A DNA stretch of 64,000 nt from Eledone cirrhosa. Its lineage: Eukaryota. Positions 54,404 through 58,087 of the stretch are shown one piece after another; the first letter of the stretch is position 1; each line of letters begins with the position of its first letter. The position numbers and the translations under genes were made by a program. The notes under the pieces were generated by a model. That model searched no databases and was not told the origin of the DNA. It saw only the letters and a list, made by a program, of their open reading frames with translations. The stretch is from assembly GCA_964016885.1 (NCBI GenBank), contig OZ024740.1, positions 264,678,001-264,742,000 of the forward strand. The letters run 5' to 3'.

Positions 54404-55658
54404 ATACATATATATACATATATATATATATATATATATATATATATATATATATAAATATATATATATATATATATATGTATATATATATATATGTATA
54501 TACATATATATGTATATATATGTATATATATATATATATATGTATATATATATATATATATATATATATGTATATATATATATGTATATATATATATATA
54601 AGTATTTATATATATATATATATATATATATATATATATATATATATATAAATATATATATATATATATATATATGTATTTCGGTTCATTTTTTCCGTTT
54701 ATATATATATGTGTGTATATATATGTGTATATATATGTATATATATATATTTATATATATATATATATATATATATATGTATATATATATATATATATAT
54801 ATACATATATATATATATACATTTGTATAGTATAAGATATATATATATACATATATATATACATATCTATATACATATATATATAAATATATATATACAT
54901 ATGTATATACATATACATATATTTTCACTTATATATATACATATATATATATACATATACATATATATATATACATATATATATACATATGTATATACAT
55001 ATATACATATACATATATATATATATATATACATATGTATATACATATATATACACATATATATACATATATATGTATACGTATGTATATACATATATAT
55101 ATACATATATATATGTAAATATGTATATATATATATATGTGTATATATATATATATTTGTATATATATATATGTATATATATATATATGTATATTTATAT
55201 ATTTATATTTATAAGTATGTATTTCGTTTCAATTTTCCGTTTATATATATATATATATATATGTATATATATATATATATATATATGTATATATATATGT
55301 GTGTATATATATGTATATATATATATATATATATGTATATATATATGTATATACATATATATACATATATATATATGTATATATATATGTATATATATGT
55401 ATATATATATATATATATATATTGTTATACTTTGGGAGGGTCATGTTGCCTAAGAAACGCACGCAACATTCGCTTTCACTCCAATTTATATATATATATA
55501 TATATATATACATATATATATATATATACGTATATATATATATATATATATATATATATATATATATATATATATATATATATATAAAGAAAAAGGGATG
55601 AAATCGAAAATGCAACTGAAGTCTTATTTTTTTTTAAAATATATATATTTATTTGGTT

Positions 55659-55696
55659 CCTTTACCGGTTTCGCAGTTCTTCTGCTTTTCAAAAGG
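55659..55696 (-). ncRNA. PLE pLTR hammerhead motif with variant core
   Basis: cctt-TTGAAAA-gcag-aagaa-ctgc-GAAA-CCGG-TA-aagg; palindromic stem III ACCGGT. Confidence 0.6.
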
Positions 55697-56722
55697 TGAG
55701 TTGAGATGGAGGGCCTGTGGTTTTTCTCACATCTGGTTGGTCTCTAAATGTTACTTGTTTTATATGGAAAAAGTGGCTCGAAAACCAGTTTTTCGAGAAG
55801 TAATTTGATTGGTTTGTCAATAATTATAATAAATTTCGCGCCAGTTCGCGTTTCAATAGTTCTTCAAATAAGAGAGAGAGAGGGGGGGGGGGGGTTGTCA
55901 CAGGATGTTTTTTCATATATGAGTGTTTGAATTTCTTTTTACTTGAAAAAATGAGGCTCACGAAGGCTTTTTTTTGGTTGGTTATAAATGAAATTTGGCT
56001 GTCACGTGAACAAGTTTTCATTACATTTTGGCGCCCTTATTTGGAAAACTATTCTGTAGTCTTTATAGTGAATGTTATGACAATGGAGAGATAGTGGTCA
56101 AGGGAAAAGGGATTGGGAGAAATGTTCTGGTTCAGTGAATATGGCCAGCTGTCAGAGTTCAGGTGTCAGAGTTCAGATTTTCTATTGAGACTGAAGATAT
56201 GTGTTTATTTGTGTGCTTGTGTGTGTGTATGTGTGTATTGGAAGATGATTCTATTAGTAGAGATGGGGGAGGGAGTTGTGTGTGTGTATATGGGTGTTAT
56301 GTGTGTGTGTGCGAGTATGTTAGATAGAGAGAATATATATTTTTTGTGTGTGTGTATATATATATGTGTGTAGGAAAGTAGTTCTATTAGTAGAAATGGG
56401 GAGGGTGTTGTAGGTGTGGGGGTTGTTATGTGTGTGTATGGGTGTTATGTGTGTGGGAGTATGGTTAGCATGTTAAGATGAAGAGAATATATATATATAT
56501 ATATATATATATTGTGTGTGTGTATGTGTGTGTGTAGGAAAATGATTCCTTTAGTAGGAATATTTTTGAATGAACATATTTTCCTGACTTTTTCGTGTTT
56601 GCTGTTGTATTGCCAGTGCAAACGTATGTTTAAGGTTTATTTAGTTCGGGTTTTTATTTTCTAAAGTAGAAGGTGTTATGTGTGTGTGTGTATGTCATAT
56701 TGTGGTGTTAACATAATGTATA

Positions 56723-57850
56723 TTAAACCTTATTTAATGTTGGTCTATATTTTTGAATAAACATATTTTCCTTATTTATTCGCATTTGTTCTGTTGTATT
56801 GTTAGCGCAAAGGTAAAATGGGAAGACTTGGAATGTGGGTGTCTTATTACTTGCGCAAATGTCTAGATTGCACTTAGTGGTATCTGTCTCGTGGTTGGAT
56901 CTCGTAATTGTTGGCGATGAACTGTCATTCTGTTTCTGAGTGTGAGTTTAGTTTGTCCTATATAATCTTCATTGCATCCTTTACATTTAATGGCATAAAC
57001 TAGATTTTTTGATGAGCAAGTGAAGTGATTTTTTACAGTAAAATTTTGTCCTGATTTAAATGTATACGTGTTGCCTTCGATGAGGTGAGTGCAGGTTCCA
57101 CAATTAGAGAGACCACATTTTTTGATACTTGGTTGTGGGTTTGTGGTAGGTAATTTGGCATTGGTGAGTAATATTTTCAGTGATTTTGGTTGTCTTTTGC
57201 TTTTGATTATTTTGTGTGTTTCAAGGGCTTTTTTCATTCTTGGGTTTTGTTTTAGTAGTGGGATGTTATTGTGAATAGTGTTGTAAGCTTCCGCATTTCT
57301 TGGGTTGTGTGTTGAGATATATGATAGAATATTGGACGTACCTTGAATTTGTTTCTGTTTCCGTAATTCATCAATGCCTATTGCTTTAGCTCTTTCTATT
57401 CCATTATTTATTAGTAATAGTGGGTACTCTCTCTCAAGTAGAATTTCCTTTAATTCTTGAAGTCTTTTATTTCGCGTTTCATAATTGGAGACAATTGTGC
57501 AAATTCTTCTTGCTAGGTTAAAAGCAATGTTCGTCTTCGTGTGCTTTGGATGGTTGGAGGTGAATAGCAGATATTGTTTGGAATCTGTTGGTTTGTAGTG
57601 TATGTCAGTTTCGATATTTGTGTCTTTTTTTGTGATTAAGATGTCCAGAAATGGGAGTTGATCTTGGCTGTATTCCATTGTGAATTGGATGTGGTTATTG
57701 ATGCCGTTTATTAAGTTTTTGAAATCCTTCAGTTGGTCGAGTGTGTGGGACCAAAGAATGAGGCAATCATCCAAGTAGCGTTTCCAATTCTCTGATAAAT
57801 ATTTGTGGAAGTTCAATCCGTATTTTGATTTGGACTGTTCATATATCTGT
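56723..57850 (-). pseudogene. PLE reverse transcriptase / GIY-YIG endonuclease ORF (partial, one frameshift near 56868)
   Basis: Listed ORF 56863-57816; adding one base continues ...LDICASNKTPTFQVFPFYLCANNTTEQMRINKENMFIQKYRPTLNKV* to 56723. Confidence 0.88.
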
Positions 57851-58087
57851 AAAAAAAAACCTCACTTTCTAATATATATATATATATATATATATATATA
57901 TATATATATATATATATATATATATATATATATATATATATATATATATATATATATATATATATATATATATATATATGTATATATATATATATATATA
58001 TATATATATATATATATATATATATATATATATATATATGTATATATATATATATATATATATATATATATATATATATATATATAT

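Follow-up and report, generated by a model that had tools for sequence, protein, structure and literature searches.

Insertions of Penelope-like elements (PLEs) take a characteristic form: inverted 5′-truncated copies and a tail of 30–40 bp on one end are described as standard features (PMC8557442, PMC3846280, PMC8969392). Two reverse transcriptase (RT) start sites have also been published for a PLE: in vitro, Poseidon protein in purified form cuts a nick into each strand of an AT-rich target and extends both, its RT starts at two sites, and the interval between them is the genomic tail; the protein from Anolis carolinensis (PAc) is predicted to be a dimer (PMC11167929). A preference for (TA)n is known for Naiad and Hydra elements, including octopus Naiads, and a zinc finger in the linker has been suggested as its cause (PMC8557442); PLEs are abundant in Octopus vulgaris (PMC13282606). 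For L1, there are descriptions both of twin priming in which the first cDNA is very short and of dual priming, which uses two RNAs (PMC2837659). Here we describe a PLE copy at positions 55587–57870 of a 64-kb stretch of Eledone cirrhosa DNA (contig OZ024740.1), the whole of which we call the window.

The copy is a broken, fairly young member of an already known element class and otherwise ordinary genomic debris. Its interest lies in its layout: we consider it probable that this 5′-truncated Neptune-type copy in (TA)n, whose break carries its own tail tip in inverted orientation, was made by reverse transcription primed from both cut target strands. What the DNA itself shows is the set of domains, a pair of fixed termini with a TATA word at the inner one, pieces arranged head to head and flanks of TA; the priming steps are our interpretation of this.

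Layout of the insertion and its two termini

The repeats of the window were compared by masked self-BLAST. The body of the copy, predicted from an earlier reading of the sequence as a minus-strand segment of about 2.26 kb, measures 2266 bp and is flanked by (TA)n arrays on both sides (Table 1). Its 3′ end recurs at 39677–39740 (minus strand), 39742–39806 (plus) and ~36213–36254 (plus). Comparison of these copies defines two termini for the family, an inner one shared by three copies and an outer one shared by two, which lie 63–64 nt apart, with a TATA word at the inner terminus. The body stops at the inner terminus, 63–64 nt short of the outer end at 39866–39867, in line with the predicted shortfall of about 65 bp. 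The lone fragment near 36213 is present as anticipated. At 39677, where a pure fold-back of the same 3′ end had been proposed, the end does recur, but "pure" is loose, as the right arm runs into the tail and the left arm does not.

The tail tip is found inverted at the 5′ truncation point, as the original prediction had it. Its 13-mer is exact at 57858–57870 and at 39854–39866, both on the plus strand, and these are the only exact sites among five window matches with two or fewer mismatches; identity between the two extends over 23 nt, through the same AATATA junction. The base composition gives a chance expectation of 0.002 for this 13-mer in the window; of the 730 edges of (TA)n arrays, one agrees with the tail end over at least 6 nt. 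The tip is not contained in the 2.27-kb body, which excludes a fold-back as the origin of 55587–57870. A coincidental 13-mer had been named as what would refute the prediction; another family repeats the layout at 50308–50518, and the match thus does not appear to be coincidental. The A residues at the junction are counted on the assumption that the first codon of the body is the Leu codon aligned with relatives.

Table 1 Features of the insertion, its target arrays and related copies (window coordinates)
Feature	Positions	Strand	Evidence or remark
Left target array, degenerate (TA)n	53000..55586		other short insertions inside
5′-truncated Neptune-type PLE body	55587..57852	-	75% identity to residues 396–724 of P0121; ends at tail-less (internal) terminus
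Non-coding 3′ region, 1.1 kb	55587..56722	-	decayed internal duplications
Predicted minimal type I hammerhead, U3-A8 core variant, palindromic helix III	55659..55696	-	motif scan
Open reading frame (ORF) remnant: RT from just before YLDD, thumb, linker zinc finger, GIY-YIG	56723..57852	-	
Frameshift at conserved His position	56867..56871	-	alignment with relatives
GIY-YIG core, two Cys between GIY and YIG	56884..57006	-	Pfam PF01541, 25.2 bits, cut-off 22.6
CX4CxxC linker zinc-finger-like motif, next conserved Cys 24 amino acids on	57091..57117	-	by-eye comparison with Fig. S2 of PMC8557442
Junction, ~5 A belonging to neither piece	57853..57857		within a 9-A run
Last 13 nt of family tail, inverted relative to body, continuing into (TA)n	57858..57870	+	exact 13-mer match
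Right (TA)n target array	57872..58998		contains another one-tailed hairpin at 58090–58265
Lone fragment ending at tail-less terminus, in (TA)n	~36213..36254	+	
39677 hairpin, left arm, tail-less terminus facing (TA)n	39677..39740	-	
39677 hairpin, right arm	39742..39802	+	5 of 61 aligned bases unlike left arm
Family tail, 63–64 nt, begins TATA	39803..39867	+	right arm of 39677 hairpin only
Independent replicate in another, hammerhead-bearing family	50308..50518		minus-strand arm from tail-less end plus inverted tail tip of ~34 nt (50481–50514)

We considered whether the tail is the start of the ORF, as in Penelope/Poseidon; it had no match to the N-termini of 75 relatives of at least 700 amino acids, and this was rejected. 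Folded as RNA, the 3′ end and the tail did no better than shuffled sequences (z +1.54 to -1.55). Within the 3′ part of the body, 56815–56747 resembles 56626–56560, and 56561–56333 resembles 56397–56197; the stretch 56197–56815 comprises a decayed repeat of the final coding stretch of the ORF together with CA-rich repeated units.

A strict motif scan of the window returned a single predicted hammerhead ribozyme, at 55696–55659 on the minus strand. Its predicted cut falls after 55663, 76 nt before the tail-less end, and its helices I and II are both 4 bp long; an Rfam search detected no hammerhead in the window, 55659–55696 included. Replacement of C3-G8 by U3-A8 is a compensating variant known from Cercyon PLEs (PMC4209133), and we rejected a decayed motif, because the two core changes are exactly this pair. 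The predicted hammerhead would mark this end of the body as a PLE terminal repeat. The idea that hairpin arms begin at the hammerhead cut was not supported: the arms begin 9–12 nt downstream, and the family at 19981 includes the entire motif. Hammerhead-like cores at 9390–9421 (plus) and 52612–52654 (plus) appeared in a loose scan only and failed the strict one.

Coding remnant, classification and age

The ORF remnant occupies two frames, 57852–56872 and then 56866–56723 including the stop codon. They are separated by 5 nt (56871–56867) where relatives carry two codons, and no stop interrupts the 374 codons, which agrees with the single frameshift predicted for this ORF. Both Cys and the first His of a CCHH motif are kept; the residue hit by the frameshift, conserved among relatives, is probably the second His. 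Relatives of the protein number 390 of similar length and 210 longer, and the full-length ones consist of an RT followed by a C-terminal GIY-YIG domain. The closest of these, P0121 (772 amino acids), shares 75% identity in an alignment that begins at its residue 396; relative to it the copy is without residues 1–395, that is, without the N-terminus and most RT motifs. Three long relatives were scanned: RVT_1 matched in all three, two of them (P0122 and P0123) above the cut-off and P0121 below it (E 8e-6), and GIY-YIG matched in two, one being P0121. The combination that defines endonuclease-containing (EN+) PLEs, RT and GIY-YIG in one ORF, is present here, with GIY-YIG above the cut-off and the RT part aligned to P0121. 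A search of PDB sequences with the protein alignment gave no match, and looking up protein clusters yielded a name for 1 of 7 proteins.

Among named relatives, those nearest to the copy belong to Octopus bimaculoides (76%) and Argonauta; in a 33-row tree (no clade references) the copy joins P0121 and the Octopus bimaculoides protein with support 100/97. These affinities by themselves make an octopod host likely. The linker spacer measures 23–25 amino acids in 41 of 61 rows (the copy and 60 relatives), the pattern being unmatched in the other 20. Spacers counted by eye in Fig. S2 of PMC8557442 are 25–27 amino acids in four Neptune-type rows and about 7 in Nematis; the CX2-5CxxC linker motif is missing from Penelope/Poseidon. 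Other clades were rejected on these grounds: Naiad/Chlamys by the C-terminal position of the nuclease, Hydra-type by the internal cysteines, Penelope/Poseidon by the presence of the CX2-5CxxC linker finger, and Nematis by the long (24-amino-acid) spacer. Domain order, the 24-amino-acid spacer and CCHH support a Neptune-type EN+ PLE and uphold the Neptune-like assignment made at the outset. The label "Neptune-type" is structural, because the Neptune group is paraphyletic in PMC8557442. Six close PLE relatives (P0061, P0163, P0173, P0194, P0208 and P0210) are labelled as proteins of bacterial symbionts of bivalves, probably through host contamination of assemblies.

The insertion had been thought young, and this stands as relative youth. 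The copy departs from its relatives at 4 of 93 columns conserved at 90% or more among the 60 closest of 171 full-coverage relatives; three of the four departures are common to P0121, leaving one private change. In a neutral simulation, the expected number of such changes was 3.9 for a divergence of 2% and 7.9 for one of 4%; the probability of no stop codon was 0.35 and 0.13, respectively. Thus, the copy at 55587–57852 is young, its divergence being probably about 2–3% or less. The 3′ core of the body differs from the other three family ends at 5/38, 3/38 and 3/39 positions (8–13%), and the arms of the 39677 hairpin differ from each other at 5/61. Judging from these distances, the hairpin is older and derives from a related subfamily, the 55587–57852 copy being a younger relative and not its source.

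The copy has no complete, uninterrupted ORF, since it starts at residue 396 of 772 and carries the frameshift, and self-comparison found no intact or full-length copy of the family in the window. The proposed link between the fold-backs and an autonomous driver holds as a family link to the 39677 hairpin, but not as regards autonomy: lacking residues 1–395, the copy identifies the driver family without being the driver.

Proposed priming from both strands, rival explanations and other repeats

The self-comparison showed many short head-to-head hairpins in (TA)n arrays. Our sample comprised 15 loci of nine families chosen by eye, to which a tenth family (8690–9579) was added later; of the 32 local inverted pairs in the window, it leaves out pairs of short interspersed element (SINE) type, three weak palindromes, 7135–7802, 29291–29615, 49000–50117 and 60864–62228. 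A tail stood on one arm in 15/15 examined loci (chosen for that); its length, measured in nine families, was 40–144 nt. Hairpins of this one-tailed kind in (TA)n come from nine families besides the ORF-linked one; the link to an ORF has been demonstrated for 1 of 10 hairpin families. Hammerhead-like cores, found by the looser scan in two of the nine others, support a PLE origin for these two; the remaining seven, assigned by their layout alone, are probably PLE ends as well.

At the tail-less end, element and (TA)n array have a few bases in common, which we call the TA word. Its length in nine families was 1, 3, 3, 4, 1, 4, 6, 4 and 5 nt, that is, at least 3 nt in 7/9, a figure that 200,000 draws of random breakpoints within these arms never reached; the tenth family has a 4-nt word, judged by eye. 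The TA word favours a second priming at the inner site guided by annealing.

We propose that the GIY-YIG nuclease would nick both strands of a (TA)n array. One target 3′ end would prime at the outer start site and stop after about 13 nt; the other would prime at the inner site, probably aided by pairing with UAUA of the element, and run for 2.27 kb. Joining of the two cDNA ends would then have added about five A, with some 50 nt of tail lacking between them; the protein would be supplied by an intact family member elsewhere in the genome. The 39677 hairpin would have arisen earlier from these two start sites, its outer cDNA having passed the inner site. Two outward, non-overlapping pieces with an internal deletion are present both at 55587–57870 and at 50308–50518, and the twin-priming geometry that had been suggested fits the former. 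Its one-RNA version alone does not fit the hairpins: at 39677 the arms overlap and both hold the same ~61 nt, unlike what that version predicts. Because both arms copy the same bases, hairpins need more than one-RNA twin priming; they would require two RNAs (dual priming) or displacement of one cDNA by the other. The similar layouts suggest that the similar insertions of the window were each likely written from both sides of a cut in (TA)n.

Several points weigh against priming from both strands. The hairpin loci were selected by eye, and the full tail is seen once in the window and never joined to an ORF-bearing copy. TA words at the inner end are also expected from microhomology joining or later deletion, and target-site duplications are unreadable as both flanks are (TA)n. 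Over all tail-less copies, the TA word reaches at least 3 nt in 12/18; two zeros among the 18 are misregistered projections, one of them the 55587–57852 copy, whose TA word is 0 in the ungapped projection and 4 (TATA) in a gapped alignment. A Poseidon element primes without target homology (PMC11167929). Finally, hairpin centres are near-symmetric, with 25 or fewer unpaired nt in 12/14 loci, as expected from self-priming (PMC3846280) and unexpected from independent truncation of two cDNAs; symmetric centres could also arise if both enzymes stopped at the same block or RNA end.

These centres are what chiefly speaks for single priming followed by self-priming or template switching. Here one cDNA, primed on the target, would fold back on itself or switch to a template that is antisense or a hairpin; resolution by a nuclease, or pairing of an internal TA word with the opposite end of the target, would produce the tail-less end. 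Earlier proposals derive PLE palindromes from self-priming (PMC3846280) and the tail from nuclease-mediated resolution (PMC8557442); the common 5′ limits among copies of the 19981 family also agree with such a course, and the TA words are equally well explained by it. We nevertheless judge it unlikely. A fold-back cannot yield the 13-nt tip or the 34-nt tip at 50481, both of which are absent from the long pieces, and lone tail-less fragments occur (36213, 55424); moreover, both tail boundaries are RT start sites in vitro (PMC11167929).

Secondary loss of the tail, by slippage or deletion between the internal TA word and the flanking (TA)n, seems to us very improbable. (TA)n arrays are unstable, TA words stand at the inner ends of 7/9 families, and one copy, at 52739, ends at a different position, all of which would suit such a loss; however, the same inner end recurs independently, within 1 nt in 3/3 tail-less copies of the ORF-linked family and exactly in 4/6 copies of the 10260 family, the tail was one-sided in every locus of the sample (chosen for that), and the inverted tip is left unexplained. 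Hardest of all to credit is that the tail comes from a different (TA)n-targeting element, or that the 13-mer is a coincidence or an assembly artefact with two insertions merely side by side: the match is short, the full tail occurs once and the N-termini of the 75 long relatives give no coding match (best E 0.03, for the 3′ region and not the tail), but the chance expectation of 0.002, the single matching edge among 730, a tip adjoining the same family at two loci 18 kb apart and the same layout in the family at 50308–50518 all speak against it.

Other one-tailed insertions were noted in passing. The 10260 hairpin family has seven copies (10260–10449, 41913–42073, 45718–45909, 47052–47232, 52739–52924, 58090–58265 and 51475–51589), several with the same centre sequence, which suggests a fixed 5′ end or a hairpin copied as a unit. 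The hammerhead-bearing 19981 family (19981–20397, 36311–36557 and 50308–50518) has nearly the same 5′ stop in all copies and occurs as a hairpin with tail, as a single tailed arm and as an arm with an inverted tail tip. Further unrelated one-tailed (TA)n hairpins, probably ends of other PLE families, lie at 6943–7124, 26267–26367, 8690–9579, 33970–34179, 35898–36099, 45279–45659, 48739–48881 and 60318–60667.

The window also contains repeats of other kinds. A non-LTR retrotransposon RT fragment at 4284–4958 (plus; Pfam RVT_1 and DUF6451), presumably RTE-like, is broken by a (TA)n array and accompanied by a segment, 5022–5297, duplicated at 5579–5854. Two 98% identical fragments, 33390–33653 and 53974–54403, contain a minus-strand frame that we take to resemble the C-terminus of a CR1/L2-type long interspersed element (LINE); short 10-nt tandem repeats adjoin them and are also found near 58539. 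An abundant SINE-like repeat of about 200 bp is present at 3586–3744, 16660–17520, 27100–28480, 29620–29840, 39290–39480, 50556–51136 and 62654–62864, with a perfect 304-bp tandem duplication at 50530–51139. A 5S rRNA-like Rfam match at 38498–38616 (minus; 44.3 bits) is probably a pseudogene or the head of a 5S-derived SINE. Lastly, 7135–7387 and 7550–7802 form a 97% identical inverted duplication around a (TA)n array, in a layout unlike that of the hairpins.

Comparison with known systems

The geometry of the insertion is not novel but an already published PLE signature (PMC8557442, PMC3846280, PMC11167929); the mildly novel part is the regularity across the window, where each insertion bears a single tail, tails are long and the inner end carries a TA word. 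In a search of the openly accessible literature, repeat databases and subscription papers aside, we found no paper that invokes twin priming or TA microhomology for the tails of PLEs. The copy is a clean in vivo footprint of an open step, the completion of PLE insertion and the placing of the tail on one end, as a body that ends at the inner site with only an inverted tail tip is incompatible with a simple fold-back. The TA word at the inner ends of many families gives a testable rule for PLE integration, and for annotation the survey suggests that, in (TA)n arrays of octopods, short palindromes may in many cases be the ends of PLEs and not miniature inverted-repeat transposable elements. A broader proposal, which we put forward only tentatively and hold to be rather doubtful, is that PLEs which target microsatellites have to prime from two sides and normally yield one-tailed head-to-head insertions for that reason: one target strand would prime at the outer site, the other at a fixed inner site chosen through pairing of (TA)n DNA with a short UA word. 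If true, it would account for the PLE tail in vivo and set the tail length of each family (40–144 nt here), unlike the homology-free priming of Poseidon.

The family may already be catalogued, for example in Repbase/Dfam, in bioRxiv supplements or in the octopus repeat library cited in PMC13282606. With Neptune as described in PMC8557442, it shares an RT followed by a C-terminal GIY-YIG, the CX2-5CxxC linker, CCHH and a hammerhead near the 3′ end, as well as an inverted 5′-truncated copy, a tail on one end and a (TA)n target. By contrast, the tail is 63–64 nt long here (40–144 nt over nine families) and 30–40 bp in the published elements, the inverted copy has shrunk to a 13-nt tail tip, and this copy, truncated inside the ORF, has no direct pseudo-LTR (pLTR) or tandem partner. 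The octopus Naiads (Naiad_Obim and Naiad_Ovul, PMC8557442) likewise prefer (TA)n in cephalopods and have the same two zinc-finger motifs, but their nuclease is N-terminal and not C-terminal, and none of the hairpin families here matches their 3′ ends on inspection by eye.

The predicted hammerhead resembles those of minimal PLE hammerheads and non-LTR retrozymes (PMC4209133; bioRxiv 10.64898/2026.07.22.740005) in its type I minimal fold, palindromic helix III, G10.1-C11.1 pair and U3-A8 variant, and in the occurrence of close opposite-strand pairs; it differs in its 4-bp helix II with no extra base before it. Unlike retrozymes (bioRxiv 10.64898/2026.07.22.740005), the copies here form no tandem arrays, and thus they are not retrozymes in the tandem sense.

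As regards priming, two systems come closest. L1 twin or dual priming (PMC2837659) offers two outward-facing 3′ ends, a very short first cDNA, internal annealing to the target and an internal deletion between non-overlapping pieces, which here would correspond to the ~50 nt of missing tail; unlike in L1, there is no poly(A), the internal site is fixed for each family and not variable, hairpin arms overlap, and the enzyme is that of a GIY-YIG PLE and not of an apurinic/apyrimidinic endonuclease (APE) LINE. With PAc (PMC11167929), this locus shares two start sites bounding the tail, an AT-rich target and the use of both strands; in addition, a weak prediction (z -1.55) places the inner end of this element in a stem-loop whose loop contains AC. 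PAc differs in belonging to a clade without the linker finger, in having its tail inside the start of the ORF, whereas the tail here has no coding match, and in priming without homology, whereas the inner ends here usually carry a TA word.

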